From: a virus
IMG/VR virus record: IMGVR_UViG_3300028840_006907
Location: 288,001 to 352,000 of that record
DNA length: 64,000 bases
Direction: 5' to 3' (one strand)
Of the stretch, positions 7,323 through 55,962 are shown one piece after another. The notes beneath the pieces are model-generated. The model worked only from the letters and a program-made list of their open reading frames with translations. It ran no database searches and was not told the DNA's origin. The position numbers were made by a program, and so were the translations under genes. How positions within the stretch are numbered: the first letter of the stretch is position 1; every line of letters starts with the position of its first letter.

Positions 7323-7610
7323 ATGAATAGGTATGACATTATTTTGGGTAACAATAGTCGGTTAGCGATGATGGAAAAATGGTCCCCTAAAGATTATAGA
7401 CAGGAATATTTAGGGGAATTCGTAAAACCAACATGTTCAGTTTCTGATGGTCATAATAATTATTGCCCATCAAAACCAGAACATTTTTTTGAGTATCATG
7501 GTAAAGAAGTGGGTTTATGTAAAGACTGCTATTTACATTATTTAAATGGACATTTTGATAAAAGATTTCAGAAAAAGAATTATGGTTATACCATCTATCA
7601 AATCGATTAA
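7323..7610 (+). CDS. hypothetical Cys-rich small protein
   Basis: ATG immediately after upstream stop; several Cys (CSVSDGHNNYC...CKDCYLHY) suggest metal binding. Confidence 0.35.
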   Translation: MNRYDIILGNNSRLAMMEKWSPKDYRQEYLGEFVKPTCSVSDGHNNYCPSKPEHFFEYHGKEVGLCKDCYLHYLNGHFDKRFQKKNYGYTIYQID

Positions 7611-7611
7611 A

Positions 7612-10280: not shown

Positions 10281-10342
10281 AAATTAGATATAAGAAGTCT
10301 CATTGAGACTATTCAATAAAATAATAAATAGGAATAAAAAAG

Positions 10343-11146
10343 ATGCCGAGATTAAGCTTTATTGTCACTGGACGAAATGACAATTATGACCAAAATTTTA
10401 ATGAACGTTTAACCATCGCTTTAAGAAGAAATATAAAATCCCTTCCAGACGCTGAATTCATTTTTGTAGAATGGAATCCTTATTTAGACCGCCCATTAAC
10501 ATGTTCAAAATTAAAAAGGACTTTTGGAGATCGAGTTAAATATTATGTAGTTCATCCTAAATATCATAAATATTATTGTAACATTGATGGTTTTCTTGAA
10601 TACCCTCCAAAAAATATCGGAATACGTAAGGCTACAGGTGAATTTATTATTTGTACAAATTCAGATGTAATTTTTTGTCCAGATCTAGTTCATTGTATGA
10701 ATATGCATTTGGAAAAAAATGTCCTTTATCGTGCTACTCGAATTGATATCCGACCAGATTATCTTAATGTAAGTTTCCCCCTTCATCCAAAATTTAAGCT
10801 TGAAACAAATCAAGGTCCTATGAATGCAGCGGGTGATTTTCTTTTAATGCATCGGGATCTATGGTATAAAACTACTGGTTATTGCGAGGAATACCCGTGG
10901 CAGAGATTACATAAAGATGCTCAGATAGTTTATTTGCTTTCTAATAAAAGAGGGTATGAAGTTCGAAACATAGGATCTATGACACATTGGAGACATCCTA
11001 GCTCCTGGTCTAATGGAAAATGTCGAGCTAGAGTAGGTGATGTGAATTGGGATTTTCAAAAATGTAATTACAAAATGAATAAAAAAACATGGGGTCTCAC
11101 GTTTACAGATGAGGTCGAAAAAGACGGCATAATTTGGCTAATTTAA
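10343..11146 (+). CDS. putative GT-A fold glycosyltransferase
   Basis: SFIVTGRNDNYD and TGEFIICTNSDVIF resemble GT2/GT7-type motifs. Confidence 0.45.
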   Translation: MPRLSFIVTGRNDNYDQNFNERLTIALRRNIKSLPDAEFIFVEWNPYLDRPLTCSKLKRTFGDRVKYYVVHPKYHKYYCNIDGFLEYPPKNIGIRKATGEFIICTNSDVIFCPDLVHCMNMHLEKNVLYRATRIDIRPDYLNVSFPLHPKFKLETNQGPMNAAGDFLLMHRDLWYKTTGYCEEYPWQRLHKDAQIVYLLSNKRGYEVRNIGSMTHWRHPSSWSNGKCRARVGDVNWDFQKCNYKMNKKTWGLTFTDEVEKDGIIWLI

Positions 11147-11176
11147 ATTTACATATAGATATTGAAAGGAGATTGT

Positions 11177-12151
11177 ATGAAACGTATATTGGTTACTGGA
11201 GCAGGCGGTTTTATTGGAGGCCATTTAGTCACTCGATTGAAAGAGGAGGGCTATTGGGTTCGTGGAGTTGATATTAAAGAGCATGAATATAAGAAGACTG
11301 ATGCAGATGAATTTTATCTTAAAGATTTGAGAATAATGCAAAATTGTCTTACTTCATGCGCTGATATTGATGAATGTTATACATTAGCTGCTGACATGGG
11401 TGGTGCAGGATTTGTTTTTACTGGTGAGAATGATGCTGATATCATGCATAATTCTGCGAAGATAAATTTAAATATGGCTGAAGCTTGCCGAATACAAGGA
11501 GTAAAGAAGATATTTTATTCCTCTTCAGCGTGCATGTATCCTGCTCATAATCAAACCGATCCGGATAATCCTTTACTTTCTGAGGATTCTGCTTATCCTG
11601 CAGCTCCCGATAGTGAATACGGGTGGGAAAAACTTTTCTCAGAACATCTTTATTTAGCTTATAACAAAAATTATGGACTGGATGTTCGTGTGGCAAGATT
11701 TCATAATATTTTTGGAGTTTTGGGAACATGGCAAGGTGGAAGAGAAAAAGCTCCTGCTGCATTGAATCGTAAAGTAGCTATGGCTAAAGATGGTGATGTA
11801 ATCGAAGTGTGGGGACCTGGTACTCAAACACGTTCTTTCCTTTATATAGAGGAATGTATTGAAGCAGTACGTCGTTTCATGGAATCAGATTTTTTAGGCC
11901 CTGTAAATATAGGTTCTGAAGAAATGATTTCAATAAACGATCTTGCGAAAATGGCCATAGATATTAGTGGTAAAAAACTTACTATCAAAAATGTGGAAGG
12001 TCCTGTAGGAGTTATGGGCCGTAATTCAGATAATAATTTATATGAAGAAAAGGTTGGATGGAGACCTTCAAAACCTTTACATTATGGTATGGAAAAGACT
12101 TATGCTTGGATAAGTGATCAAATTAAACAAATTTATCCCTTTAGAAAATAG
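11177..12151 (+). CDS. NAD-dependent sugar epimerase/dehydratase (SDR family; GDP-mannose 3,5-epimerase-like)
   Basis: RBS AAGGAG then ATG 11177; VTGAGGFIGGHL Rossmann motif; SSSACMYP...AYPAAPDSEYGWEKL resembles GME-type active-site region. Confidence 0.8.
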   Translation: MKRILVTGAGGFIGGHLVTRLKEEGYWVRGVDIKEHEYKKTDADEFYLKDLRIMQNCLTSCADIDECYTLAADMGGAGFVFTGENDADIMHNSAKINLNMAEACRIQGVKKIFYSSSACMYPAHNQTDPDNPLLSEDSAYPAAPDSEYGWEKLFSEHLYLAYNKNYGLDVRVARFHNIFGVLGTWQGGREKAPAALNRKVAMAKDGDVIEVWGPGTQTRSFLYIEECIEAVRRFMESDFLGPVNIGSEEMISINDLAKMAIDISGKKLTIKNVEGPVGVMGRNSDNNLYEEKVGWRPSKPLHYGMEKTYAWISDQIKQIYPFRK

Positions 12152-12154
12152 CTT

Positions 12155-12856
12155 ATGGAATTAATAACAAAAGCAGTTATAATGGCTGGTGGAGAGGGTA
12201 CTCGGTTAAGACCTTATACAGAAATGACTCCTAAAGCAATGTTAGAGGTTAACGGTATTCCTCTCTTACGTTTAATGATAGAGAGACTTCATAGTTTTGG
12301 TATAACTCATTTCTATTTAAGTGTAAATTATCTCTCGAAAGTAATCTGTGATTATTTCGGTGATGGATCTAAATTTGGGATTAATATCACTTATATAAAA
12401 GAACCTTATTCGATGGGGACCGCAGGTTCAATTAGTATGGTTGATATTGAAGAACCTTTTTTGGTTATAAATGGAGATGTTTATACCAGTCTTGATTTTA
12501 GAGATCTCTTTGTAGAATTTAGAAGATCTAAATCAGATCTATTAATATGTTGTAGGGAGCAATTATTAAAAACAGATTATGGTGTTATTGTAAAAGAAGA
12601 TGACAGGATAACTTCCTGGGTTGAAAAACCTGAGTTTACTCATTACATAAGTTGTGGTATCTATGTATTCAAACCAGAGATTGTAAAATATATACCTAAA
12701 GAACATTTTTTTAATATGAATCATTTAGCTGAAGCGGTTATTGAAAAGAATAAAAAAGCTGGATTTTATTTAATGGATGATCTAGATATCTGGATTGATA
12801 TAGGAACTATTGAAGAATATAATAAGGTCAAGGAATTGTTAACAGTAAAAAAATAA
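12155..12856 (+). CDS. sugar-phosphate nucleotidyltransferase
   Basis: N-terminal AVIMAGGEGTRLRPYT signature of NDP-sugar pyrophosphorylases. Confidence 0.8.
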   Translation: MELITKAVIMAGGEGTRLRPYTEMTPKAMLEVNGIPLLRLMIERLHSFGITHFYLSVNYLSKVICDYFGDGSKFGINITYIKEPYSMGTAGSISMVDIEEPFLVINGDVYTSLDFRDLFVEFRRSKSDLLICCREQLLKTDYGVIVKEDDRITSWVEKPEFTHYISCGIYVFKPEIVKYIPKEHFFNMNHLAEAVIEKNKKAGFYLMDDLDIWIDIGTIEEYNKVKELLTVKK

Positions 12857-12865
12857 GAGGATAAA

Positions 12866-13759
12866 GTGAGAGTTGTATTTATTGGTTGCGTCAATTTCAG
12901 TAAAGCAATGTTGGAATATGCTTTAGAAATAGAGTGCCTTGAAATAGTGGGTATCGTGACAAAATCAGAATCCAATTTTAATACAGATTTCTGTTCTTTG
13001 GCCCCTTTAGCCCAGGAACATAATATTTCTTATCTTTTATACGATCAATTAAAATCGGAAAGTGGACTCAATAGTTGGGTTGAATTAAAATTTCCTGATG
13101 TGATCTTTTGTTTTGGTTGGTCCCATTTATTAAAAGCTGAACTTATAGAAATTCCTAAAATAGGAGTCATAGGACATCATCCTACAATGCTTCCTAAGAA
13201 TAGAGGGCGACATCCAGTAATATGGGCGTTAGCTTTAGGATTGGAGTATACTGCTTCAACTTTTTTCTTTATAGATCCTGGGGTGGATTCTGGGGATATT
13301 CTAGATCAAATCCCTGTAAATATAAATTTTGATGATGATGCTAGTATTCTCTATCAGAAGATCACAGTGACTGCAGGAAAGCAATTAAAAACATTTTCTC
13401 CTCTTTTGGAGAAAGGAGAATATATAGTTGTTAAACAAGATATGAGTAAAGCTACATGGTGGAGAAAAAGGTCAAAAGCTGATGGATATATTGATTGGCG
13501 TATGAGTTGTTTTTCCATTCATAATTTAGTCCGGGCTTTGACTTGTCCTTATGTAGGGGCTCATTGTGAATTTAACAATAGGGATATAAAGATCTGGAAA
13601 GTTAGAATAATGTATAAAGGATTAGATGATATTGAACCAGGTAAAATAATCGATTTAAATAGAAATAAAAATGAAATCTATATAAAGTGCGGGGATGGAG
13701 TTATGTGTATCTATGATCATGAATTTGATCCTCTGCCTGAGATCGGAACTTATTTATGA
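12866..13759 (+). CDS. formyltransferase family protein (probable sugar N-formyltransferase)
   Basis: GTG start with AAGAGGA RBS; HHPTMLPKNRGRHPVIWAL matches the formyl-transferase catalytic loop. Confidence 0.7.
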   Translation: MRVVFIGCVNFSKAMLEYALEIECLEIVGIVTKSESNFNTDFCSLAPLAQEHNISYLLYDQLKSESGLNSWVELKFPDVIFCFGWSHLLKAELIEIPKIGVIGHHPTMLPKNRGRHPVIWALALGLEYTASTFFFIDPGVDSGDILDQIPVNINFDDDASILYQKITVTAGKQLKTFSPLLEKGEYIVVKQDMSKATWWRKRSKADGYIDWRMSCFSIHNLVRALTCPYVGAHCEFNNRDIKIWKVRIMYKGLDDIEPGKIIDLNRNKNEIYIKCGDGVMCIYDHEFDPLPEIGTYL

Positions 13760-14415
13760 AAATTATTGCCATTGCACCTCATCCTGATGATGAGACTCTG
13801 GGATGTGGTGGTACACTCTTGAAGCATCGGGATGCCTCAGATGATATTTATTTGGTTCTTGTTACTACAGCAGGTTCTGAATACAGTGAAGAGCATATCA
13901 ATAATAAATACAAAGAAATAGATAATGCCAACGAGATTTTTGAATTTAAGACTATCTTCGATTTGGGTTTCCCTGTTACTCATATTGGTTCTATAGATAT
14001 ATCAGAAATAATTGGTAAACTAATGGACACATTTAAATTAGTGGGTCCCGATATTATTTATGTTCCTTTCCCGTATGATATTCATACTGATCATCAAGTT
14101 GTTTTTGATGCGGTTTCTTCGTGTACAAAATGGTTCAGAATACCTACTTTGAAAAGAATACTAGCCTATGAAACTATATCTGAAACAGATTTTATTATTA
14201 GACCCGGTCCTTCTTTTATCCCTAATGTTTTTGTCAATATTGAAGATCACATTGATAAAAAGATAGAGGCTATGAAATGCTATGCTAGTGAAATTGCTAT
14301 GCCTCCTTTTCCTCGTAGTGAGGAGAATATCAGAGCCCTGGCAACATTAAGAGGTTCAACATCTGGTTTCAAAGCTGCGGAAGCTTTCATGTTGTTAAAG
14401 GAGATAGATGAATGA
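13756..14415 (+). CDS. PIG-L/LmbE family N-acetyl-sugar deacetylase
   Basis: IAIAPHPDDETLGCGGTL signature; start overlaps upstream stop. Confidence 0.75.
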   Translation: MKIIAIAPHPDDETLGCGGTLLKHRDASDDIYLVLVTTAGSEYSEEHINNKYKEIDNANEIFEFKTIFDLGFPVTHIGSIDISEIIGKLMDTFKLVGPDIIYVPFPYDIHTDHQVVFDAVSSCTKWFRIPTLKRILAYETISETDFIIRPGPSFIPNVFVNIEDHIDKKIEAMKCYASEIAMPPFPRSEENIRALATLRGSTSGFKAAEAFMLLKEIDE

Positions 14416-15380
14416 GTAAAAAAGTTTTAGTTACTGGTGCAGGAGGATTTATAGGATCTCATTTAGTAAAACGGCTCATGGAATATGGGTATGATGTTAC
14501 AGCACTGGTAAAATATAATGCAAATGGTTCTTGGGGCTGGTTAGACACATTTCATCGTTCTGTAATCAAAGATATTAGAGTAGAGTTGGGTGATGTTCGG
14601 GATCCGGAACAAATGATGAGATATAAAAACATGGATATTATTTTCCATTTAGCTGCTTTGATAGGTATCCCTTATTCCTATGTAGCTCCTCGTTCATATG
14701 TCGATACCAATATAAACGGTACTTTAAACATGCTTCAGGTTTGTCGGGAAAATGGAGCTACTTATATTCATACATCAACTTCTGAGGTATATGGTACAGC
14801 CCTTTATGAACCTATTGATGAAAAACATCCTATCCAAACACAGAGTCCATATTCAGCTACAAAAAGTGCTGGAGATAGTTTAGCAAAGAGTTATTATCTT
14901 TCCTTCGATTTGCCCGTTATTATAGTAAGACCATTCAATACTTTTGGAACACGTCAATCTTTAAGAGCTGTTATTCCCACTATTATCAGTCAGGCATGTA
15001 AAGATGATGTTATAAAACTTGGAGATCCAAGTACCATGAGAGATTTCATTTTTGTGGATGATACTGTAGAAGGCTTTATAAAGGCCGCTGAGAGGGGAAA
15101 ATCTGGAGAGACTTATAATATAGGTTATGGCAAAAAAAGGTCAATAAGAAGTATTGTGGATGACGTAGGCAATATATTAGGTAAAGTTTTAAAAATTGAA
15201 TCGGAACCAGAGAGAATGCGACCTCCGAAGAGTGAGGTAAGAGTTCTTGTTTGTAATAATGAAAAAGCAAAAAAAGAATTGGGATGGGATATTAAATGGC
15301 CTTTTAAAAAAGGGTTGGAATATTTGATCTACGATTGGCAACGAGAAAACAAAGAAAGTAAAGATTTTTATCATGTCTAG
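14412..15380 (+). CDS. NAD-dependent nucleotide-sugar 4,6-dehydratase/epimerase (SDR)
   Basis: VTGAGGFIGSHL Rossmann motif; catalytic YSATK (YxxxK). Confidence 0.8.
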   Translation: MSKKVLVTGAGGFIGSHLVKRLMEYGYDVTALVKYNANGSWGWLDTFHRSVIKDIRVELGDVRDPEQMMRYKNMDIIFHLAALIGIPYSYVAPRSYVDTNINGTLNMLQVCRENGATYIHTSTSEVYGTALYEPIDEKHPIQTQSPYSATKSAGDSLAKSYYLSFDLPVIIVRPFNTFGTRQSLRAVIPTIISQACKDDVIKLGDPSTMRDFIFVDDTVEGFIKAAERGKSGETYNIGYGKKRSIRSIVDDVGNILGKVLKIESEPERMRPPKSEVRVLVCNNEKAKKELGWDIKWPFKKGLEYLIYDWQRENKESKDFYHV

Positions 15381-16449
15381 TATATTTTTACACATACCTC
15401 ATATAGGGGAAGAGGAAAAGGCAGAAGTAAATAAGGCTCTTAATACTGGAGAATTGACCTGTGGAAATTATTTAAATCAATTTGAAAAAGAATTAAGTGA
15501 AAGGATAAATTCTCCTGTTGTTTTATGCTCTTCTGGAACAGCAGCTTTGCAATTAGGTCTACATGCTATGGGTATAGGTCCAGGAGATGAAGTAATTGTT
15601 CCTAATATGTCTTTTGTTTCGACTATAAATTCTGTTTTATATATGGGTGCTACCCCAGTTTTGTGCGATGTAGGTGATCCTGAATACGAGCTTTCCATTG
15701 ATCCTGAAGAAATAATCGATCTCATAACTCCTCGAACTAAAGCTATAATGGTATCTCATCTTTGTGGGGGATACGGTGACATTGAAAAGATATTAGATAT
15801 AGCTAGTGCGTATAAAGTTGATGTCATTGAAGATGCTGCTCAGGCAGTAGGTTGTACTATGAATGGCAAAGCTTTGGGAACATTTGGAAAGTTTGGTGTC
15901 TATTCATTTAATGGGAATAAAATTATCACCACAGGTGGTGGAGGCACTCTTTTAACTTCAGATCGTGGAATGAGTCAGAGAGTACGAAATCTTCTTAATC
16001 AAGCGAAAGACATTTTAAATCCTTTTTCTCATATAGAGATGGGGTATAATTATAGAATCAGTAATATCCATGCTGCGATAGGTTGTGCTCAATTAAAAAA
16101 ATTAGACTCTTTTATTGATAAGAAAAAATTTATTCATGAGACCTATAAAAAGAAGTTAGACATAATAACTTATAAGGAAAAATCCAATTATTGGTTGAAT
16201 GTTTATAAAGTAAAAAAATTTAATCCTTATGAAGCTGTTTGGAATCTGGATTACAAAAGCATAGAGACTCGTCCTATTTATACCCCTTTTCATATGATGG
16301 ATTTTCTTAAAAAATATGGTGAGGATGAATACCCGGTTTCAGAGAAATTATATAACAGTCTTTTTTGTTTGCCATCTTATTTATCTCTTGATGAAGAGAT
16401 AATCGATAAAGTAGTGGATGAAATAAATAATTTGGAGAATAGTGAATGA
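15373..16449 (+). CDS. DegT/DnrJ/EryC1-family PLP-dependent sugar aminotransferase
   Basis: Family-typical layout, FNGNKIITTGGGG motif around the PLP lysine. Confidence 0.85.
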   Translation: MSSIFLHIPHIGEEEKAEVNKALNTGELTCGNYLNQFEKELSERINSPVVLCSSGTAALQLGLHAMGIGPGDEVIVPNMSFVSTINSVLYMGATPVLCDVGDPEYELSIDPEEIIDLITPRTKAIMVSHLCGGYGDIEKILDIASAYKVDVIEDAAQAVGCTMNGKALGTFGKFGVYSFNGNKIITTGGGGTLLTSDRGMSQRVRNLLNQAKDILNPFSHIEMGYNYRISNIHAAIGCAQLKKLDSFIDKKKFIHETYKKKLDIITYKEKSNYWLNVYKVKKFNPYEAVWNLDYKSIETRPIYTPFHMMDFLKKYGEDEYPVSEKLYNSLFCLPSYLSLDEEIIDKVVDEINNLENSE

Positions 16450-17141
16450 AAAAACATATCCTTTTGATGTTTAATATGGGAAATAGTGGTGGGAAGTATT
16501 TCGAAGATATTTGTAATACTCACGAAGATGTTCAGATATGGCAAGAAGCAAATCACCTTTTAAAAGTAGATCATCTTGAGACACCAGTTCAGTTCGACAG
16601 GGTATATGCTTTTTTCATGAAACAGTATGAAGAAAATAAGAAAAAAACCATCGGATTAATAAAAGCTTTTGATCATCGGTTAATAGGATTGGCTGAAAGA
16701 ACTGGTGGGTCTATCATGCAGATGTTCAGACATCCTGTAGGTGTGGTGGGTTTTAAGACAGGCCATAAAATGGCTGAGTGTGAACAGAGAGGTTTGTTTG
16801 ACAAACTAGACACACCTGAAAAGATTTTTGAAGCTCATGTGGATTTTTATGCCTCAATATATAATTCCTATACGAAGAATGCTCATAAGTGGCCTGTTGT
16901 TAAATTAGAGGATTTAAAAAAGTCTTTACGGGAAAGAACTCCGTATTTTGAAGATGTAATGAAAAAAGCGCTGAAAGTTGACTGGCAACCGAAACATACA
17001 AAAAAAGTTATTAATATGGGAGGGCTTGAAGAGAATAGAGATCATTTTGATATTTGGAAATCATGGGAAGATTGGAAGAAAGATATTTTTCTGAAGTATT
17101 TCCAGGAAATAATGAAATTGTATATGTATGAATGGGAATGA
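16446..17141 (+). CDS. sulfotransferase-like protein (paralogue of 20367-21158)
   Basis: MGNSGGKYF (5'-PSB-like) and FRHPVGVV (3'-PB-like RNP motif); clear paralogy with 20367 ORF at N- and C-termini. Confidence 0.4.
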   Translation: MKKHILLMFNMGNSGGKYFEDICNTHEDVQIWQEANHLLKVDHLETPVQFDRVYAFFMKQYEENKKKTIGLIKAFDHRLIGLAERTGGSIMQMFRHPVGVVGFKTGHKMAECEQRGLFDKLDTPEKIFEAHVDFYASIYNSYTKNAHKWPVVKLEDLKKSLRERTPYFEDVMKKALKVDWQPKHTKKVINMGGLEENRDHFDIWKSWEDWKKDIFLKYFQEIMKLYMYEWE

Positions 17142-17155
17142 TAGGAGGACGAAGT

Positions 17156-18151
17156 ATGAAAAATTTGGAAATCATAGCTGAGTTCGGAACTAATCATGTC
17201 GATCCTAATGGTAAAGTTCTTGAAAATATTGAGGATTTGATACATACACTAGCAGACAAAGGAGCGACTGCAGTTAAATTTCAGCTTTTTAAAGCTGATA
17301 ATTTAGTAGAAAAGAATACTGAAGTACATGGCCTTATAAAAAATTTGGAAATTGCTCTTGAAGAGCATGTCAGATTAAAAAAGATCTGCGAAGAAATAGG
17401 TTTGCGGTATCTTTGCACTCCTTTTTGCGTTGAGTCTTTGGATGCTCTTCTTAGTATAGGAGTAAAGGAAATAAAAATAGCCAGTTGTGATTGTGGTAAT
17501 TTACAATTGATGTCAGATATTGTACAACGTCATAACAAAATTCATCGAGTTATAATGGCTACAGGTATGTCAACATTGAATGAAATTGGTGTTTCCATTG
17601 ACATCCTTATTGATGGAGGATTTAATATTGATCTTTTACATTGTACAAGTGTTTACCCTACACCGATATACCGAGCTTCTCTAGACATGATAAGAGTCTT
17701 AAAAAAGAAGTGGGGTTTATTTAATATAGGATATTCGGATCATACATTGGGGACTGAAGTGGTGGGTATAGCCCGAGCTATGGGTTGTACCATTTTTGAA
17801 AAGCATGTAACTCCTGATAGAACAATGCCCGGTTTTGATCATGCTTATTCTTTTCCTATTGATGAATTTGATAAATATGTCGATGCTATCAAGAATGTCG
17901 ATCAGATAATAGGAGAAGAAAGAAAATACGTAGATAAAAAAGAAGCAGTATCTCGTGATGCCATGAAAAGAGGCATATGGTTTAAAAAAGAAGTGTTTAA
18001 AGGGCAGAAAATAACCAGAGATGATATCATTGTACGAAGACCGTTGAAAGGGGCCGTTAACCAGACTTACTATTTTTCTGTTCTTGGTAAAAAAGTAAAG
18101 AAGAATTTTAATGAGGATGATCCCGTTTTAACGGAGAATTTATATGAGTAA
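17156..18151 (+). CDS. N-acetylneuraminate/pseudaminate/legionaminate synthase family (NeuB-like)
   Basis: RBS AGGAGG then ATG 17156; IIAEFGTNHVD signature; nonulosonic-acid synthase length. Confidence 0.85.
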   Translation: MKNLEIIAEFGTNHVDPNGKVLENIEDLIHTLADKGATAVKFQLFKADNLVEKNTEVHGLIKNLEIALEEHVRLKKICEEIGLRYLCTPFCVESLDALLSIGVKEIKIASCDCGNLQLMSDIVQRHNKIHRVIMATGMSTLNEIGVSIDILIDGGFNIDLLHCTSVYPTPIYRASLDMIRVLKKKWGLFNIGYSDHTLGTEVVGIARAMGCTIFEKHVTPDRTMPGFDHAYSFPIDEFDKYVDAIKNVDQIIGEERKYVDKKEAVSRDAMKRGIWFKKEVFKGQKITRDDIIVRRPLKGAVNQTYYFSVLGKKVKKNFNEDDPVLTENLYE

Positions 18152-19052
18152 AATAGGAATTCGATGTGATTGTGGACCGGTAATGGGCATGGGTCATATA
18201 TCTAGGCAGAAACTTATTTATGAAGAACTCATGAAATTGGACCACGAAGTTTCTTTTTTTGTAAAAAGAGAACGGAACATAGTTAAATCAATGGGACTTC
18301 CACTTTCAAATAAGATTTTAATGGATACAATGGATACTTTGATAATTGATTTAGTGGAAGGTTTTGAGGATTATGATTTTCCTCGAACTAAAATAGTTTT
18401 TTATGATGGTCCGGAAATGATACATTGTGATGCTGATATCATTTTTGCTTTAAATTATAAACAACAGAAATCCTGGTATAGAGGAACGGGTTATTATGTT
18501 GGGCTAGATTATATCCCGATGGATCCCAGCATTTCTAAAATAGAGAAAGAATTTGGTAATTTAGAAAAAATATTAATTATGACAAGTGGAATCGATCCTT
18601 GGGATATGCCAGGACAAATAGTTAGAGTTATTAAGGATCTGGGTTATGACATCACAGTTAAATTATCTAATGCTTATCCAAAAGATTGGATCAGTAAACT
18701 TGAGAAACATGCTGAGATAATTTTAAATGTGGATAGTGTTGCTTCATTATATGAAGAATATGATTTAATGATATGTACTGCAGGAAATGTGTTGTTCGAG
18801 GCTGCTGTAGCTGGTTTACCCTGTATAAGTTTTTCGACGGGTAAAGTTCAGGAGGGCCATGGGGCGTTTATGAGTGACAAAGGTTTTTCAGTTCATCTTG
18901 GAGGCTTTTGGAATAATACTGCTGAAGTTGGTTATTTGTCTGATGCTATAAAATTTTTAGCTGATAGATCGGATAGAGAACAAAGATCTGAGATAGGTCG
19001 TTCTATTTGTGATGGTAAAGGATTAGAAAGGATAATAAATATTATAGGGTAA
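18144..19052 (+). CDS. putative PseG-like UDP-sugar hydrolase (GT-B-like)
   Basis: N-terminal IGIRCDCGPVMGMGHISR resembles PseG/SpsG motif; position between synthase and cytidylyltransferase. Confidence 0.4.
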   Translation: MSKIGIRCDCGPVMGMGHISRQKLIYEELMKLDHEVSFFVKRERNIVKSMGLPLSNKILMDTMDTLIIDLVEGFEDYDFPRTKIVFYDGPEMIHCDADIIFALNYKQQKSWYRGTGYYVGLDYIPMDPSISKIEKEFGNLEKILIMTSGIDPWDMPGQIVRVIKDLGYDITVKLSNAYPKDWISKLEKHAEIILNVDSVASLYEEYDLMICTAGNVLFEAAVAGLPCISFSTGKVQEGHGAFMSDKGFSVHLGGFWNNTAEVGYLSDAIKFLADRSDREQRSEIGRSICDGKGLERIINIIG

Positions 19053-19055
19053 AAT

Positions 19056-19718
19056 ATGAAAACTATCGCATTTACATTGCCAGTAAGAAAGAACAGTCAA
19101 AGAGTAAAAAATAAAATGTTAAGACCTTTTGCAGGGAGAAGTTTATTTGAGATCTATTTGGATAAAATCGAATGTTTCAAACATTTGGTTTATGTTGTTG
19201 CCTATGAAGAAGAATTTATTAACATAGCTAAAAAAAGGGGATTTAAATATCTTCATAGAAGTGAAGAGTCTGCTAATGGGGAAACTTCTCCAGTTATCCA
19301 TAGTTATTTAAATGAGATGAAAGAAGATTTCATTTTTATGGCAACTGCGTGTTGTCCTTTGATGAAGACAGAGACTTTGAAAAATATCATGGTAGAGCTA
19401 TGTTCAAAACTCCATGATCCTAATTATCACGGTTTAATAACTGTAAAAAGATGTGGTAATGCTATTTGGAATTCAGAGAAGAAAGTAATGAATGATGATG
19501 TTCGAACTTTCAATACTAAGTTAAGAAAACCTTTTTACATCGAGACTAGTTCCGTTTTTGTTTTTAGACGTGAAAGATTTCTTAAACTAGGTGCATATTG
19601 GGATTTTGGTGATAAAGATCCCGATCTTTATGAAATTAATTCAATTGAAGCTACTGATATTGATACAATGGATGATTTCGAAGTAGCTGAAATACTTTAC
19701 AAAAGAAGGTTGTCATGA
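19056..19718 (+). CDS. acylneuraminate cytidylyltransferase family (CMP-nonulosonic acid synthetase)
   Basis: N-terminal FTLPVRKNSQRVKNK matches the CMP-NeuAc synthetase family motif. Confidence 0.7.
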   Translation: MKTIAFTLPVRKNSQRVKNKMLRPFAGRSLFEIYLDKIECFKHLVYVVAYEEEFINIAKKRGFKYLHRSEESANGETSPVIHSYLNEMKEDFIFMATACCPLMKTETLKNIMVELCSKLHDPNYHGLITVKRCGNAIWNSEKKVMNDDVRTFNTKLRKPFYIETSSVFVFRRERFLKLGAYWDFGDKDPDLYEINSIEATDIDTMDDFEVAEILYKRRLS

Positions 19719-20374
19719 AAAATTATGGCTATGCTGATATGAGTGAAAAAGAAAAATTATCTAAAGAACAAGTATTAGAATTTTGGAAAAATCCTATAAA
19801 CGATAATACTAATAAAAATGAGAACAATGATCCTGAGCATTATTTGAGTGGGGAAAAACGTAGCCGATATCTCGTTGAATTAATTAAAAGGCATTTACAT
19901 AAAGAAGCAAAAATATTAGAGATTGGTTGTAATGTCGGGAGGAATTTGCATTATCTATATGAAACAGGTTATAACAATTTAAATGGGATAGAAATTAATG
20001 ATAATGCTGTTCAAGTGATGCATAAAAATTATCCCGAATTATATGGAAGTGTAGGAATTTATAATTGTCCGGTTGAATCTATTATTACATCTTTTTCCGA
20101 TGAAGCCTATGACTTGGTCTTTACAATGGCTGTTTTAGAGCACATTCATTATGAGAGTGATTTCATTTTCTCTGAGATAGCTCGGGTAGCCAAAAGATGT
20201 ATAATTACAATTGAAGATGAAAAAACTACCTGGAGTAACAGACATTTTCCTCGTAATTATAAGGAGGTGTTTGAGAAGATCGGGAATTGGGTACAGATTT
20301 ATGATATGAATTGTGGTGGGATTAATATACTTGATGATCGATTTTGGGTAAGGGTATTTAAAAAGAATGTCTAA
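19715..20374 (+). CDS. class I SAM-dependent methyltransferase
   Basis: Motif I ILEIGCNVGRN, motif post-I/II region; overlapping start. Confidence 0.6.
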   Translation: MKNYGYADMSEKEKLSKEQVLEFWKNPINDNTNKNENNDPEHYLSGEKRSRYLVELIKRHLHKEAKILEIGCNVGRNLHYLYETGYNNLNGIEINDNAVQVMHKNYPELYGSVGIYNCPVESIITSFSDEAYDLVFTMAVLEHIHYESDFIFSEIARVAKRCIITIEDEKTTWSNRHFPRNYKEVFEKIGNWVQIYDMNCGGINILDDRFWVRVFKKNV

Positions 20375-21158
20375 ACGAATAGTGTTAGTCAGAAATATGG
20401 GAAACAGTGGCGGTGCCTGGTTAATGAAGGTATTTAATATGCATGAAAACATATTAATGTTTCAGGAATTAAACCAGATACTGAGGTTAAGATATGATTA
20501 TTCGGATATAAATAAGAAGAATCTAAATTACCCTCATGTTGACTATGATGTAAAAATAGCTCAACGGAGTCGTGATCTTAAAGGATTTTTATTTAATAGT
20601 AGAACTCAGTGTCATATAGCAACTAGTTTTCTTTTATATCAATATGATATTAGAAAAGAAGATGCGATTGGGTTAATAAAATGTTTTGATCATGAATCTA
20701 TAAGAGAATGTAGAGTAAAATGTCCTTCTGTTAAAGTTGTACAAGTTTTAAGAAATCCTATTGGTATAATAGATTTTTATATGAGTCAGGAAAATTTAAG
20801 GCAAATAGCCCATCATGATCCATATGAAATATCTTTTAAAAAACATGTGGATTTCTTTCATAATAAATTTATAGATTTTTGGGAAAATAATGAAAAAAAA
20901 GGTGAGAAAATTATACGACTAGAAGATTTGAATATATCATTGAAAGATGGAAATCCTTTCTTAAAAGACACTATGGAAGATTTATTTGAAGTTAATTTCT
21001 CAAATGAATTTATTGAAAAAATCAAACAAAATTTAGGTTATGGGAATGAAGGTAACCAGAATAAAGAGATATGGCAAAACTGGGAAGGATGGAAAAAAGA
21101 ATATTTCAAGAAATATTTCGAAAATCTAATGATGAATCTTGGCTATGAATTGAGGTGA
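20367..21158 (+). CDS. sulfotransferase-like protein (paralogue of 16446-17141)
   Basis: MGNSGGAWL and VLRNPIGIIDFY (resembles SULT 3'-PB RNPKD region); shared C-terminal W..W.GWKK.YF motif with paralogue. Confidence 0.4.
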   Translation: MSKRIVLVRNMGNSGGAWLMKVFNMHENILMFQELNQILRLRYDYSDINKKNLNYPHVDYDVKIAQRSRDLKGFLFNSRTQCHIATSFLLYQYDIRKEDAIGLIKCFDHESIRECRVKCPSVKVVQVLRNPIGIIDFYMSQENLRQIAHHDPYEISFKKHVDFFHNKFIDFWENNEKKGEKIIRLEDLNISLKDGNPFLKDTMEDLFEVNFSNEFIEKIKQNLGYGNEGNQNKEIWQNWEGWKKEYFKKYFENLMMNLGYELR

Positions 21159-21161
21159 TAA

Positions 21162-21737
21162 ATGAATTTATTTGAATCTGCGTACTATACTGAAGAGGAT
21201 CTGAGAAAAGGCGGTTTTAAAAGTGTCGGTAAAAATGTTCAGATTGATAAAAGTTGCACGATAATAGGCTTAGATAAAATCACTCTAGGAGATAATGTTC
21301 GAATCGATGGTTACTGTTGTATTATTGCCACAAAAGAGGAAGTGATTTTCGGTTCTTATATTCATATAGGTTCGTTTTGTCATCTCTGTGGAACTGCAGG
21401 TCTTATAATGAAAGATTTTTCAGGTTTGTCACAAGGAGTTCGAATTTACTCCTCTTCTGATGATTATTCAGGAAAGTTTTTAACTAATCCAACTGTTCCC
21501 GATAAATACACAGGTATAATAAGAGAACCAGTTATTATAGGTAAACATGTTATAATCGGGGCTAATACTGTTATTCTTCCAGGAGTTGTTATAGGTGATG
21601 GGTCAGCTATTGGTGCCATGTCCCTTGTAACAAAAGACGTAGATAAAAATAGTGTCTATGCAGGTTGTCCAGCGAAATTTATAAAAACACGTTCAAAAAG
21701 AATATTTGATTTAGAGAAGAGGTTATTAAATGAATAA
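21162..21737 (+). CDS. hexapeptide-repeat (LbH) acetyltransferase
   Basis: Left-handed beta-helix repeats IGANTVILPGVVIGDGSAIGAMSLV. Confidence 0.75.
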   Translation: MNLFESAYYTEEDLRKGGFKSVGKNVQIDKSCTIIGLDKITLGDNVRIDGYCCIIATKEEVIFGSYIHIGSFCHLCGTAGLIMKDFSGLSQGVRIYSSSDDYSGKFLTNPTVPDKYTGIIREPVIIGKHVIIGANTVILPGVVIGDGSAIGAMSLVTKDVDKNSVYAGCPAKFIKTRSKRIFDLEKRLLNE

Positions 21738-22443
21738 ATCAATTTTCATATGTTCAGGAGGTCGATGTGGTACACATTGGGTTCGGCCTATTCTTGCTCA
21801 GCTTTTAGATTTACAAACTGGGTTTGATTGGAAAGGATATAATCCAAATAAAATTCCCTTTAAAACAGAACCTGGAGCTATTTGGAAAATAAAGATGGTA
21901 GAAAAGAGAGAGCCAGGAGGAAGGATTTATTCAGGGCATATGCCAATTACAGAACTTCTACCTATTATCAGTTTAGTAAATATAATAATTCTTATAAGAG
22001 ATCCTAGAGATATGTGTGTTTCGGCTGCATATTATACTCCAGAAAGAAGAGTATTAACTCAAGAAGAATTTGAATCTAAATTTAATAATTTATTAATACA
22101 AGGAAGCCCGAATCCTGATTTTCATGAATCTTATATAGAAAGTAAGAATAAAATACCTCATTTTTTATTAAAATATGAAGATATGATTCATGATGATTAT
22201 GGCTCAATAGTTAAATTTTTAAATAATTCAGGTTATAAATTTGAAGAAGAAAAATTAAAATATGTACTTGATAAAAACTCATTCAAGAATTTATCAGGTG
22301 GACGAGAAGCCGGTGAGGAGGATAATACCGCTTTTTATAGAAAAGGTATTGTGGGTGATTGGGTAAATTATCTCTCTAATGGTTTACTTGAACAATATAC
22401 CGATAGGCATAAAACTTTGTTGGAAGAATGGGGGTATATGTAA
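21730..22443 (+). CDS. sulfotransferase
   Basis: 5'-PSB-like SGGRCGTHW, 3'-PB RDPRD, and C-terminal RKGIVGDWVN matching RKGxxGDWKN. Confidence 0.75.
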   Translation: MNKSIFICSGGRCGTHWVRPILAQLLDLQTGFDWKGYNPNKIPFKTEPGAIWKIKMVEKREPGGRIYSGHMPITELLPIISLVNIIILIRDPRDMCVSAAYYTPERRVLTQEEFESKFNNLLIQGSPNPDFHESYIESKNKIPHFLLKYEDMIHDDYGSIVKFLNNSGYKFEEEKLKYVLDKNSFKNLSGGREAGEEDNTAFYRKGIVGDWVNYLSNGLLEQYTDRHKTLLEEWGYM

Positions 22444-22444
22444 T

Positions 22445-23116
22445 ATGGAAGATTATTTTGAACAAATGGTAACAGTTTTTAAAAAGTACTTTAAAGAGTA
22501 TTATCGTAATGTATTCACAAATCAATCAGTGGAAACCTGTACAGGTATTTATAATCTTTGTAAAAAAGAAAATCCAGATCAAGTAGTGGAAATGGGAACC
22601 AATCATGGGGCTTCTACTCTTTCTATAGTAAAAGCACTGACTGATTTAGGGAAAGATTTGTCTATTATTACTTCAATTGATTTAGACCACGAGAAATGGA
22701 AGGCAACATTTAATATACAAAAAGAATTGATTAAAAAGTATGATTTAAATTTAGGAAAAGTAAAATTAATAACTCAAGATTTTAATTCAGTAGATCCTGT
22801 AGAAATAATTGACCCTGAAAAGAAAGTATTTATTTTTTATGATATGCATGATCATCGAGGCCCATGGTCACAGAGACTACTTGATTTATGGGTACCTTTA
22901 GTTAAGAATGGTGTCTTCTCTATTCATGATGTAACTCCTGTAAGTGAATCCTTTGAAATAGTTCAGGATAAAATTTCCCCTCGAACAAAGATACAGTATA
23001 AGAGTGGGCAGTATTTTGCAGGTTTCAATGAATGTTTTCGAATAATAAAATGGGCAAATACAAATAACATAAATATAGAGATATTTCCAGGAGGAGTATA
23101 TTTCAGAAATGGCTAA
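22445..23116 (+). CDS. putative class I methyltransferase (CmcI/TylF-like)
   Basis: ATG right after upstream stop; VVEMGTNHGAST resembles CmcI-type SAM-binding; weak. Confidence 0.35.
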   Translation: MEDYFEQMVTVFKKYFKEYYRNVFTNQSVETCTGIYNLCKKENPDQVVEMGTNHGASTLSIVKALTDLGKDLSIITSIDLDHEKWKATFNIQKELIKKYDLNLGKVKLITQDFNSVDPVEIIDPEKKVFIFYDMHDHRGPWSQRLLDLWVPLVKNGVFSIHDVTPVSESFEIVQDKISPRTKIQYKSGQYFAGFNECFRIIKWANTNNINIEIFPGGVYFRNG

Positions 23117-23795
23117 CATTTTTATTGGAAAAAATATGTCAAATATAAAAAATATTCCTGGTTTAAATAAAATAACAAAGATACATGATGTGGCTGATTA
23201 TGTGAGATTAGCTGATTTTGTCTATAAAACAATTTCCCATTCTATGGATAGTGGGATTGATTTAGATTATTCTGTTAATCAATTGTATTGGCAATTTGTG
23301 AATAAAAAGAGATTTGGATGGTGCTATATGCATGCTCTGTATTATCATCTTATAGTACAAGAATATGGTCGTGAATCTTTTGTTTATGATTATGGCTTAC
23401 CAGCGCCACAATTAACTCATAGTGTTGTTGTAGTAACTTTACGTGATGATAAGTATTTAATTGATCCTTATTTTAATCGTTATTATGTAACAGAAAAAGG
23501 GAATCCGTATACATTTCCTGACTTATTGGCTATGATAAAAACTGATCCAACAAAAATTTATAGTAAATATGGACCTGGTTTGAAAGAAGTTAAACAGGGA
23601 GATAAATATATAGAAACTTCTCCTGAACAATTTGAAAAAGGAGTATTGGAATCGTGGCGAGTAAATCAGAATTATGATAAAATAATGATGGAAAAATTTA
23701 ATAGCACAAATGCATTATTATTAATGCATTGTAAAGTACAAAAAGCTAAAGTATGTAAAAAAATAGATGGGACAAAGTATTTTGACTTTTTCTAA
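23109..23795 (+). CDS. hypothetical protein
   Basis: ORF in operon context; no motif recognised. Confidence 0.5.
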   Translation: MANIFIGKNMSNIKNIPGLNKITKIHDVADYVRLADFVYKTISHSMDSGIDLDYSVNQLYWQFVNKKRFGWCYMHALYYHLIVQEYGRESFVYDYGLPAPQLTHSVVVVTLRDDKYLIDPYFNRYYVTEKGNPYTFPDLLAMIKTDPTKIYSKYGPGLKEVKQGDKYIETSPEQFEKGVLESWRVNQNYDKIMMEKFNSTNALLLMHCKVQKAKVCKKIDGTKYFDFF

Positions 23796-24570
23796 TGTTA
23801 TATCCTTTATCAGTGCATTTAAAAAGTTTAAACCTCCTTATGGTATGATACAGCATTCTGCTATGTATTCATGGAATGCTAATAATATTGAAGTATTTGT
23901 TCCAGATAATGAGGTTGGAGTTAAAGATGCTTGTCAGAGTTATCCTAATATTAAATTAATCCCCGATGTTAAACGGGCTCGGGAAATGGGCTTTTCAAAT
24001 CAGTCTCCTATGGTAAAAGATCTGATTGCAAAAGCTCTACCTTTAATCAATACTCCGATGGTAGCTTTAATTAATTCAGACATTATAATTCAACCTGATT
24101 TTATAGAAAGAATAGAAAAAATACTGAAAGAATACGGTTTTGATATTTATATGGTGGGAACTCGATTTGATATTAAATTGGATATTCATATAAGTTCGGA
24201 AGAGACATATAAACAGGTATTGAGTTCAGAACGAAAAAGTTATGATGGCAGTACTTCTTCAGATATATTTATAGCTTCTAAATTTACCTGGAGGAAGATA
24301 GTTCATGAAATGCCTGATTTTATTCTAGGTCGGTATGGGTGGGATAATTGGTTACATATGATTGCAGAACTTAAAGGATATCGTAAATTTAATTGTACAG
24401 ATGCTTTGACTATTCTTCATTGTGAGCATGATCATAAGCATATAGTTCTTCAGGAAAAGGCTGAAAAACAAAGTGCTCCAAGTTCACAGCATAATTTAAA
24501 GTTATGGAATGAAGTAAAAAATGTTTATGGGACGACCAGGATAAATGCATGGCCAAAAATTGAAATATAA
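23767..24570 (+). CDS. hypothetical protein
   Basis: ORF in operon context; start uncertain. Confidence 0.5.
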   Translation: MGQSILTFSNVISFISAFKKFKPPYGMIQHSAMYSWNANNIEVFVPDNEVGVKDACQSYPNIKLIPDVKRAREMGFSNQSPMVKDLIAKALPLINTPMVALINSDIIIQPDFIERIEKILKEYGFDIYMVGTRFDIKLDIHISSEETYKQVLSSERKSYDGSTSSDIFIASKFTWRKIVHEMPDFILGRYGWDNWLHMIAELKGYRKFNCTDALTILHCEHDHKHIVLQEKAEKQSAPSSQHNLKLWNEVKNVYGTTRINAWPKIEI

Positions 24571-24661
24571 TAGGGGTAAAGAAGTTTCTCTACCCCTACA
24601 TGCACATTTTAACCACAATCCCATCTTATGGCTAAAAATATAATAAAAGGATGATACAAGA

Positions 24662-50816: not shown

Positions 50817-50823
50817 AGGTAAT

Positions 50824-55859: not shown

Positions 55860-55962
55860 ATGAGTACCTCTTTTTAGTATATTACTTATTATAACAGGTA
55901 TTAGAGTTATTGTCAATATTTCATTTAATAAATATGGAATTCATTAATTTATAGGGAAAAAG

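Follow-up and report, generated by a model that had tools for sequence, protein, structure and literature searches.

A 64,000-nucleotide stretch of the virus record IMGVR_UViG_3300028840_006907 (record positions 288,001 to 352,000; hereafter the window, in whose coordinates all positions are given) carries what appears to be a nearly complete operon for a cytidine monophosphate (CMP)-activated nonulosonic acid (NulO), put together mostly from legionaminic acid (Leg)-type parts and an N-formylation module. Nonulosonic acids cap the surface glycans of bacteria and archaea, serve as receptors for phages and help in evading immunity. These genes probably form a virus-borne route to a CMP-activated 5,7-diamino-3,5,7,9-tetradeoxy-nonulosonic acid that follows the logic of the guanosine diphosphate (GDP)-type Leg pathway. 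We regard the cluster as a recombined form of the Leg-type clusters of cells, carried by a probable phage. Such an operon is rare in phages, yet it closely mirrors gene clusters that are common in bacteria.

The open reading frame (ORF) listing and the Pfam and NCBIfam searches recovered every enzyme class named in the original prediction, an earlier reading of this DNA, each where it had been placed, and the gene spacing agrees with its picture of overlapping genes on one strand. The NeuB, CTP_transf_3, DegT, Formyl_trans_N and PIG-L domains were all found by the profile searches. Two details of the layout changed. The genes at 12155-22443 are present, but the conserved block is wider, running from 8931 to 25480 entirely on the + strand; and the hexapeptide and methyltransferase genes, described in that order, stand the other way around, with the methyltransferase gene (19715) preceding the hexapeptide gene (21162). 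Between 11162 and 24570, the spacing between genes ranges from -65 to +15 nucleotides (nt) and overlaps of 4-10 nt predominate; the -65 nt overlap, at the 22379 ORF, becomes a gap of about 1 nt if the JGI gene start (~22445) is used. Shine-Dalgarno (SD)-like motifs precede about half of the operon genes. This grouping of genes is far beyond chance. Scans for promoters and terminators returned counts no higher than the shuffled expectation, and are thus uninformative on transcription units. We compared the proteins of the block with those of two related metagenome contigs, L007 and L009, which carry the same gene block with its order kept and with protein identities of 53-76%. What was observed directly, and forms the basis of what follows, is the assignment of the proteins to families and folds, the intactness of their catalytic motifs, the architecture of the operon, its conservation in these relatives and the parallels in cells.

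The early genes of the pathway appear to be of Leg type. A sugar-1-phosphate nucleotidylyltransferase is encoded at 12155-12856 (Pfam NTP_transferase, E 5e-37, 128 bits against a cut-off of 21). Its top NCBIfam models are mannose-1-phosphate guanylyltransferase and archaeal GlmU, with every score under cut-off, and its homologues in cellular Leg-type loci are 33-39% identical. The GDP-type Leg route has a dedicated enzyme of this kind, and the pseudaminic acid (Pse) route does not. We propose that it supplies the nucleoside diphosphate (NDP)-hexosamine precursor in a PtmE-like role, its nucleotide and sugar specificity not being determinable from sequence. The extended short-chain dehydrogenase/reductase (SDR) at 14412-15380 (Pfam GDP_Man_Dehyd, E 1e-64) is LegB-like, that is, a predicted nicotinamide adenine dinucleotide (NAD)-dependent NDP-N-acetylhexosamine (NDP-HexNAc) 4,6-dehydratase. 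It scores 390 bits on LegB (TIGR04180, cut-off 475), against 172 on RmlB, 74 on GMD and 57.7 on PseB (TIGR03589, cut-off 407.75), and is 47-53% identical to the SDRs of the cellular formyltransferase/PIG-L loci described below. Its best solved structure is Pal, from the Pse route of Bacillus thuringiensis, only marginally above RmlB; PDB neighbours therefore do not discriminate the type of this SDR. Next to it, at 15373-16449, lies a LegC-like pyridoxal phosphate-dependent aminotransferase (Pfam DegT, E 1e-92), predicted to act on the C4 keto group. This protein scores 304 bits on the LegC family (TIGR04181, cut-off 420) vs 207 on PseC (TIGR03588, cut-off 423.5), and its top PDB matches are 7b0m, GDP-perosamine synthases and PglE.

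The same preference is displayed by the synthase at 17132-18151, whose assignment to the NeuB family, as had been predicted, is confirmed by a Pfam NeuB match (E 3e-58, 198 bits) followed by an SAF domain. We consider it to be of LegI/NeuB type: it scores 244 bits on NeuB_NnaB (TIGR03569, cut-off 400) vs 179 on PseI (TIGR03586, cut-off 340). Outside its own clade, the nearest proteins share no more than 39% identity with it and bear the names NeuB or N,N'-diacetyllegionaminate synthase. PDB neighbours do not type the synthase, with NeuB, SpsE and PseI all at about 96-98 bits. A divergent, putative CMP-nonulosonate synthetase (cytidylyltransferase) is encoded at 19056-19718. It aligns to CTP_transf_3 over its full length (E 5e-10, 39.9 bits against a cut-off of 22.6), its N-terminal motif PVRKNSQRVKNK is intact, and it reaches 48 bits on PseF (cut-off 206); a phmmer search against the PDB gave no match. 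The matches to NeuB and CTP_transf_3 bear out the earlier claim of a nonulosonic acid pathway that ends in a CMP-activating enzyme.

That claim had gone further and named the canonical PseB/C/H/G/I/F route, which is not supported: PseB, PseC and PseI are all outscored, no GNAT (PseH) domain was found by Pfam among the ORFs of 8931-25480, and only the hydrolase is PseG-like. Because the LegB, LegC and NeuB_NnaB models beat PseB, PseC and PseI, and because neither a GNAT PseH in the block nor a NeuC in the window, its flanks and the related contigs was found, the early and synthase steps are best described as Leg-type, with a putative Pse-type enzyme only at the hydrolase.

The second building block of the operon is a formyltransferase (FT) and deacetylase pair. 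At 12866-13759 is an ArnA/Fmt-like N-formyltransferase of the N10-formyltetrahydrofolate-dependent kind (Formyl_trans_N, E 1e-16; Formyl_trans_C, E 5e-19), which matches the formyltransferase domain of ArnA (E 3e-30) and PseJ (E 1e-9) in the PDB and carries the HHPTMLPKNRG and VDSGD motifs intact. It is followed at 13756-14415 by a PIG-L/LmbE-family de-N-acetylase (Pfam PIG-L, E 1e-20), in which the metal-site motifs AHPDDE and HTDH are invariant. A scan of GTDB with the PIG-L alignment yielded at least 465 bacterial and archaeal relatives confirmed by tblastn, at most 51% identical, and the loci of the best 80 of these were inspected. A formyltransferase homologue was present in 38 of the 80, mostly directly upstream of PIG-L and up to 49% identical to ours; LegB-like genes occurred in 38 (best identity 53%), LegC-like genes in 55, NeuB in 30, an NTP-transferase in 22 and a NeuC-type gene in 37, the last mostly directly upstream of the FT/PIG-L pair. 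PseG-like genes, relatives of the sulfotransferase-fold paralogues described below and Sulfotransfer_1 genes were found in none of the 80 loci. In cells, the pair is located between NeuC and NeuB within LegB/LegC clusters, and in the window the two genes are likewise adjacent in a LegB/LegC/NeuB cluster and retain their catalytic motifs. The FT/PIG-L pair thus appears to be a common cellular module and a genuine part of NulO clusters.

This recurrence supports the earlier reading of the pair as an N-acyl remodelling module, as does a link to mass spectrometry. The Leg-type cluster of Kuenenia stuttgartiensis has a deacetylase and a formyltransferase, and the CMP-NulOs of this organism displayed one free amine, one N-formyl group and O-methylation by mass spectrometry (SugarBase preprint 10.64898/2026.04.20.719630). 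In addition, Halorubrum sp. PV6 and VP4 of the virus HRPV-1 carry 5-N-formyl-legionaminic acid; in that case it is the host that makes the sugar, and its leg cluster contains a formyltransferase gene (PMC6137143). A structurally characterised N-formyltransferase from a Pse route is also available, namely PseJ (PDB 6ci2). A haloarchaeal host, as the HRPV-1 parallel and the submitter of the sample would suggest, was considered for our replicon and set aside, since its GC content of 32%, a Tad3 protein and T4-like endonuclease matches indicate a bacterial host.

The Pse-type element of the cluster is the 302-amino-acid (aa) protein encoded at 18144-19052, a predicted PseG-like GT-B NDP-sugar hydrolase. 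PDB sequence searches with this protein, and with that of the 20367 gene, gave nothing useful, so that profiles and structure prediction were needed for both. The 18144 protein matches PseG (TIGR03590) with an E-value of 2e-17 and 63.6 bits, against a cut-off of 153.55. Its AlphaFold2 (AF2) model is of high confidence (predicted local distance difference test, pLDDT, 90.7) and displays a GT-B fold, and PseG (3hbm/3hbn) was the closest-sized match in Foldseek, with the lowest root-mean-square deviation (rmsd; 3.7 Å) and the highest TMt (0.70). Identity to Campylobacter PseG, at 20-21%, was also the highest among the structure matches. The top Foldseek E-values go to true glycosyltransferases, YjiC and MurG among them. 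Over its whole length the family profile can be aligned with PseG, which places GFGH His17 of that enzyme, a residue with a catalytic role, on the invariant GMGH His18.

This family is small. Nine homologues were found in a set of 5.8 billion proteins, and a GTDB pattern scan with the PseG-like alignment gave no relative. An exhaustive HMMER search recovered a tight clade (3 representatives above 435 bits, the next protein at 168 bits) and, beyond it, a continuum of about 8,000 proteins at E<=1e-10. Ten of the nearest outgroup proteins were tested; PseG was the best NCBIfam model for each, and four of them exceed its cut-off. The fold, the size, the alignment of the histidine and these outgroup proteins together suggest that 18144 represents an outlying branch of the PseG family, with predicted hydrolase activity, and the structure prediction agrees with the earlier description of the protein as PseG-like. 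The adjacency of the NeuB and PseG-like genes is kept in L007, L009 and the more distant contig L010. The PseG-like gene occupies the position downstream of NeuB; cellular clusters use NeuC/LegG instead.

Based on family membership, on which all of the proposed steps rest, we infer the substrate, the order of steps, the stereochemistry and the glycan target as follows. The 12155 nucleotidyltransferase would activate a hexosamine-1-phosphate, the LegB-like SDR (14412) would carry out the 4,6-dehydration, and the LegC-like aminotransferase (15373) would add the C4 amine. PIG-L (13756) and the formyltransferase (12866) would then reshape the N-acyl pattern on the nucleotide sugar, either replacing an N-acetyl with an N-formyl group or leaving one amine free. 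A second acyltransferase, for which the hexapeptide protein (21162) is a candidate, would acylate the other amine; its slot is filled in L007 by a second formyltransferase. The NDP-sugar would be hydrolysed by the PseG-like GT-B enzyme (18144), the product condensed with phosphoenolpyruvate by the NeuB-type synthase (17132), and the CMP-sugar formed by the divergent cytidylyltransferase (19056). Methyltransferases, the canonical sulfotransferase and the two sulfotransferase-fold paralogues may tailor the NulO or neighbouring residues, and the product would most likely decorate the virion or the surface of the infected cell. The likeliest product is a CMP-activated 5,7-diamino-tetradeoxy-NulO in which one amine is N-formylated and the other acetylated or free.

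The Leg route requires a hydrolysing 2-epimerase (NeuC/LegG), and to our knowledge PseG-type enzymes do not epimerise C2. A tblastn search with a NeuC-type query (E<=1e-3) found nothing in the window or in the loci L005-L007, L009 and L010, and no such gene was seen in the 18 kb of flanks; the product may therefore be a sugar other than legionaminic acid. LegB-type dehydratases, for their part, do not invert C5. If the LegB-like enzyme keeps C5 and the PseG-like enzyme keeps C2, and given a NeuB at most 39% identical to the cellular ones, this phage lineage might make a NulO that is neither legionaminic nor pseudaminic acid, N-formylated and possibly O-methylated or O-sulfated, for its virion or fibres or for re-coating the cell; we offer this as a speculative and rather doubtful possibility. 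Such a sugar would have the D-glycero-L-manno configuration (8-epi-pseudaminic acid) or the undescribed D-glycero-D-gulo configuration, depending on the aminotransferase, and 8-epi-pseudaminic acid would then arise directly and not through epimerisation of Pse.

The replicon itself is very probably a very large tailed phage. It spans 389-470 kb with a GC content of 32%; the window maps to the JGI contig 3300017963|Ga0180437_10000019 (388,651 bp), and identical proteins were found on contigs of up to 469,617 bp (NCBI, ENA, Logan). Its viral nature, which had been left conditional before, is borne out in kind by phage-typical genes, by ORFan-rich flanks, in which most ORFs have no Pfam match, and by scans that detected no tRNA genes and no Rfam matches in the window.

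Several observations weigh against a phage-encoded NulO pathway as set out here. All of the specific NCBIfam equivalog scores (LegB, LegC, NeuB_NnaB, PseG and PseF) are below their curated cut-offs, and by this measure no enzyme of the operon appears to be a certified orthologue. NeuC/LegG (Epimerase_2) had no Pfam match among the scanned ORFs of the window, neither a glutamine amidotransferase nor a mutase that could supply precursors was seen, and no NulO-transferase was identified. The hexapeptide protein resembles an O-acetyltransferase rather than a PglD/NeuD-type N-acetyltransferase, as judged from its profile matches. Co-transcription is suggested by gene spacing alone. As for the replicon, Pfam and PHROG searches revealed no capsid, portal or terminase gene in the ~82 kb examined, and pattern scans of IMG/VR did not find this lineage or its PseG-like and sulfotransferase-fold families.

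These last points are those that a cellular origin would explain. Under that alternative, the replicon would be a reduced symbiont, a megaplasmid or a genomic island, or else a eukaryotic giant virus, and the cluster an ordinary surface-glycan locus; the large size of the replicon (389-470 kb) fits this as well as the missing terminase, portal and major capsid genes and the absence of the contig and of both protein families from the IMG/VR scans. We judge it unlikely, considering the flanking ORFs mostly devoid of Pfam matches, the Tad3 protein, a Mom-like/HNH fusion, HNH/EndoVII proteins with T4 Srd-like matches, the phrog_3758 virion protein, a 1228-aa protein whose C-terminus is like myovirus tail-fibre/structural proteins, the lack of tRNA and rRNA genes, and a PseG-like family for which the GTDB pattern scan gave no relative. 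Overlapping, SD-preceded genes speak against a eukaryotic virus in particular. A narrower objection concerns the 18144 protein, which could be a GT28/MurG-like glycosyltransferase, the hydrolase being encoded elsewhere or supplied by the host. YjiC and MurG do have the best Foldseek E-values, the PseG score is well under its cut-off, and a NeuC-type gene was sought in part of the genome only. Even so, the compact size of 302 aa, the best rmsd, TM-score and identity all falling to PseG, the full-length PseG alignment including the catalytic-site histidine, and the ten out of ten nearest outgroup proteins tested with PseG as best match make a glycosyltransferase quite improbable. Its place right after NeuB is, moreover, kept in four loci and in the cellular locus L096 (metagenome-assembled genome, MAG, GCA_905333185.1), which likewise has no NeuC-type match in tblastn searches that included a NeuC query.

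Alternatives to the pathway assignment fare worse. The canonical Pse pathway (PseB/C/H/G/I/F) with extra tailoring enzymes would account for the PseG-like hydrolase, for the weak matches of 19715 to a Pse-associated methylase and of 19056 to PseF, and for Pal being the best solved structure for the SDR, marginally above RmlB. It is nonetheless very unlikely with an SDR at 58 bits on PseB (cut-off 408) vs 390 on LegB, PseC (207) below LegC (304), PseI (179) below NeuB_NnaB (244), operon ORFs lacking a GNAT PseH-like domain, a dedicated sugar-1-phosphate nucleotidyltransferase that is foreign to the Pse route, and closest cellular loci that are Leg-type clusters with NeuC. One could also imagine two pathways side by side, with 12155-16449 leading to an NDP-4-formamido-4,6-dideoxyhexose such as GDP-N-formylperosamine, and NeuB, the PseG-like protein and the cytidylyltransferase to an unrelated NulO from host precursors. 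Mannose-1-phosphate guanylyltransferase as the best model for the nucleotidyltransferase, the proximity of the aminotransferase to perosamine synthases in the PDB and the match of the formyltransferase to the GDP-perosamine formyltransferase 5vyr (E 1e-11) all point that way. Yet a perosamine route has no use for a de-N-acetylase, the SDR scores 390 bits on LegB vs 74 on GMD, the cellular FT/PIG-L pair sits between NeuC and NeuB in LegB/LegC clusters, NeuB would be left with no dedicated substrate supply, and the overlapping genes form one translationally coupled string, so that we regard a split of this kind as highly improbable. A single, Leg-type NulO pathway with a PseG-like hydrolase remains the reading that we favour.

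Sulfation was part of the original prediction, and the plural "sulfotransferases" turned out to be right only at the level of fold. The gene at 21730-22443 does encode a canonical 3'-phosphoadenosine-5'-phosphosulfate (PAPS)-type sulfotransferase (Pfam Sulfotransfer_1, E 1e-22, 81 bits against a cut-off of 22), with PDB matches to SULT2A1 and others (E 3e-11) and with the GGRCGTHW, RDPRD..S and RKGxxGDW motifs of PAPS sulfotransferases intact. By contrast, paralogue A (16446-17141, 231 aa) and paralogue B (20367-21158, 263 aa) have no Pfam match and a sulfotransferase-like fold. They are 29% identical to each other (E 2e-34), and their family is very small, with 11 homologues. Paralogue A is absent from L007; paralogue B is kept in all three related genomes, with 53-56% identity in L007 and L009. 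An AF2 model from the family alignment (pLDDT 86.6) retrieved only sulfotransferases among its top 30 PDB matches in Foldseek (E 6e-5 to 1e-3, TM ~0.5), and the putative sulfotransferase likeness is one of fold only. The P-loop of these proteins reads NMGNSGG, without the Lys/Arg through which sulfotransferases usually hold the 5'-phosphosulfate, and the family has an invariant R-x-P motif. Outside the operon, a fourth sulfotransferase-like gene (49032-49610) lies among putative structural genes and matches phrog_3347 (galactose-3-O-sulfotransferase) with an E-value of 1e-7.

The remaining tailoring genes include a class I S-adenosylmethionine (SAM) methyltransferase at 19715-20374 (Pfam Methyltransf_11/25), which has a weak match to the Pse-associated methylase (TIGR03587, 45 bits, cut-off 112) and is absent from L009, and a hexapeptide-repeat acyltransferase at 21162-21737 (Pfam Hexapep), whose top NCBIfam models are of the WbbJ, Vat and maltose O-acetyltransferase class, with 48 bits on NeuD_NnaD (cut-off 161). 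These are followed by a Methyltransf_24/CmcI-like methyltransferase, possibly a sugar O-methyltransferase, at 22379-23116 (PF13578, 33.5 bits against a cut-off of 26.3; weak RMNT_CmcI match), and by a conserved 228-aa protein at 23109-23795, a candidate acyltransferase with a borderline arylamine N-acetyltransferase signal (PF00797, 22.1 bits against a cut-off of 22.8). The latter is 57% identical in L007 and L009 and, unlike the hexapeptide gene, is found in all three related genomes; we infer that it is a candidate for the missing N-acetyltransferase. A conserved 267-aa protein at 23767-24570, weakly GT2-like (PF13641, 17 bits, below cut-off) and 57-58% identical in L007 and L009, is a candidate glycosyltransferase. 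The last gene of the block, at 24662-25480, encodes a class I SAM methyltransferase (Pfam Methyltransf_31/25/11, E 3e-23; 62-65% identity in L007 and L009).

At its upstream end, the block begins with a nucleotide-sugar 6-dehydrogenase of the uridine diphosphate (UDP)-glucose dehydrogenase family (8931-10280), with the N-terminal, central and C-terminal UDPG_MGDP_dh domains of Pfam, 335 bits on TIGR03026 (cut-off 190) and 63-67% identity in L007 and L009. The next gene (10343-11146) encodes a 267-aa conserved protein that found no match in the Pfam and NCBIfam scans and weakly resembles the product of the 23767 ORF around an NSD(V/I)I motif; it is probably a GT-A-like glycosyltransferase, and no other protein of the block is as well conserved (76% identity in both L007 and L009). 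The third gene, at 11162-12151, encodes an extended SDR epimerase/reductase (Pfam Epimerase, E 1e-40), whose top NCBIfam model is GDP-L-fucose synthase (106 bits, far under the cut-off of 500) and which has a 60% identical homologue in the Kyanoviridae marine virus AG-345-L05. The methyl- and sulfotransferases might modify other sugars in a larger glycan rather than the NulO; genes for UDP-glucuronate-type chemistry, for instance, lie immediately upstream.

The operon is embedded in a glycan island of about 40 kb, covering positions 1-39.8 kb of the window, that adjoins tail-fibre-like genes. Transferases of the GT2, GT1 and GT10-like kinds are encoded there, along with a radical SAM gene and at least eight methyltransferase domains. 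Its members include a 994-aa GT2+GT1+methyltransferase fusion (4336-7320), a GT10 fucosyltransferase-like gene (33287-34090), an FkbM methyltransferase (34090-34710), a 684-aa methyltransferase+GT2 fusion (34711-36765), a further GT2 gene (39085-39759) and two further methyltransferases. A thymidylate kinase gene (7546-8247) lies between the 994-aa fusion and the NulO block. The radical SAM gene (28478-29545, - strand) is situated between the two halves of a thiamine pyrophosphate (TPP) enzyme, E1_dh/DXP_synthase_N (27859-28485) and Transket_pyr (29514-30038), an arrangement that is reminiscent of two-carbon branched-chain sugar tailoring modules.

Three phage-typical genes lie at 50788-51252, 46054-46431 and 59979-63665. 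They encode a protein with a Tad3 (anti-defence) domain, a phrog_3758 virion structural protein with homologues in Rhizobium phages of ~193 kb, and a 1228-aa protein with a C-terminus like tail-fibre/structural proteins of Flavobacterium and cyanobacterial myoviruses. Also detected were HNH/EndoVII homing endonucleases with T4 Srd-like matches. The gene at 53409-55916 (- strand) encodes an 835-aa fusion of DUF7487, a Mom-like DNA-modification domain and HNH/homing-endonuclease-like regions, which suggests that bases of the genome may be hypermodified. ORFs of 492 and 592 aa had no Pfam or PHROG match; against phage records the former gave no match, and the latter one weak match to a jumbo-phage tail protein.

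The related loci differ from the window in their accessory genes. L007 lacks paralogue A and the hexapeptide gene and carries, immediately before its Sulfotransfer_1 gene, a short formyltransferase in addition to the first, while L009 lacks the 19715 methyltransferase and carries an unrelated hexapeptide protein in the 21162 slot. L010, a more distant contig from marine sediment, displays an NTP-transferase, NeuB, the PseG-like gene and DegT in this order. Since L007 and L009 vary in this way and L010 keeps the core, the cluster can be described as a conserved core with a variable periphery of acyl and methyl tailoring. L010 additionally has a GFO_IDH oxidoreductase and a TylF methyltransferase, and the dehydrogenase orthologue of L007 (681-2603 of that contig, 640 aa) contains an intein (Intein_splicing, weak match).

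Searches of phage genomes underline how rare such clusters are among viruses. Megablast of the operon, and of 39.5-64 kb of the window, found nothing meaningful among 50,697 phage records, and tblastn of NeuB against the same records gave three matches, one of them a bacterial Moritella contig. The other two were the uncultured huge phage LR756508.1 (484 kb) and the Kyanoviridae marine virus AG-345-L05 (149 kb). Like the window, both have NeuB together with SDRs, and AG-345-L05 also DegT; unlike it, their NeuB is only 26-29% identical, both records are unannotated, and no formyltransferase, PIG-L or PseG-like homologue was found within the 30 kb around NeuB. The IMG/VR pattern scan with NeuB gave two distant matches and no close relatives. 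One of these two, L003 (IMGVR_UViG_3300007351_000481), was considered as a phage-encoded precedent. Its phage integrase gene precedes a canonical PseF/PseC/PseI/PseB/GNAT/Maf cluster for flagellin glycosylation, and it was rejected as most likely a piece of host DNA bordering a prophage. A literature search on viruses or jumbo phages and NulO synthesis, in a limited library, found no paper on a complete phage-encoded NulO pathway. In Acinetobacter, the tailoring of NulOs by prophage genes is known (PMC12053666, PMC6586298).

If our reading is right, prokaryotic viruses, like eukaryotic giant viruses, could build complex acidic glycans independently of their hosts. Possible uses would be virion decoration, superinfection exclusion and receptor masking.

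Comparison with characterised pathways illustrates the mixed make-up of the cluster. The GDP-type Leg pathway of Campylobacter jejuni consists of PtmE, LegB, LegC, LegH, LegG, LegI and LegF. The window shares with it a dedicated nucleotidyltransferase and has candidates for the retaining 4,6-dehydratase, the C4 aminotransferase, the NeuB-type synthase and the CMP-synthetase, but lacks LegG and a clear PglD/NeuD-type LegH and adds the formyltransferase and the deacetylase. With the Campylobacter/Helicobacter Pse route, it has in common a predicted PseG-like hydrolase whose active-site histidine is kept and, as in the PseJ variant (6ci2), a formyltransferase that might replace or supplement the N-acetyltransferase. 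It differs from that route in the absence of a PseB-type inverting dehydratase, a GNAT PseH and a PseI-type synthase, and its formyltransferase is of the long ArnA/Fmt type with a C-terminal domain, whereas PseJ is of the short type.

The closest parallels are cellular. The FT/PIG-L Leg clusters (Kuenenia; GTDB loci L016, L024 and L037) have the LegB-like and LegC-like enzymes, the FT and PIG-L pair, NeuB, the nucleotidyltransferase and the CMP-transferase in common with the window, with identities reaching 53% for LegB, 51% for PIG-L and 49% for the formyltransferase. The cytidylyltransferase of the window is too divergent for a BLAST match to theirs. Such clusters usually have NeuC/LegG directly upstream of the pair, whereas the window lacks it and has a PseG-like gene after NeuB; none of the 80 loci has the sulfotransferase-fold paralogues or the Sulfotransfer_1 gene, both present in the window; and their replicons are cellular, ours phage-like.

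The replacement of the hydrolase has its own counterpart in L096, in which the gene order is CTP_transf_3, NeuB, PseG-like, PglD-like, CBS-NTP_transferase, LegB-like, DegT, Wzx, hexapeptide and Sulfotransfer_1. As in the window, Leg-type early genes are accompanied by a PseG-like gene directly after NeuB and by a nearby sulfotransferase; the LegB-like proteins are 48.5% identical, and the PseG-like protein of L096 is the nearest outgroup of the window family. Unlike the window, this locus is cellular, has no formyltransferase/PIG-L pair and carries a PglD-type N-acetyltransferase and a flippase, with identities of 25-49%. Both unusual features of the cluster therefore have cellular precedents, the FT/PIG-L module in the GTDB loci and the hydrolase swap in L096; their combination was not found outside this lineage. 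Leg-type early genes combined with a PseG-like hydrolase, as in L096 and L010, look like an uncharacterised variant of the NulO pathway, and this combination, present in at least one bacterial MAG as well as in the window, would mark an uncharacterised branch of NulO biosynthesis.

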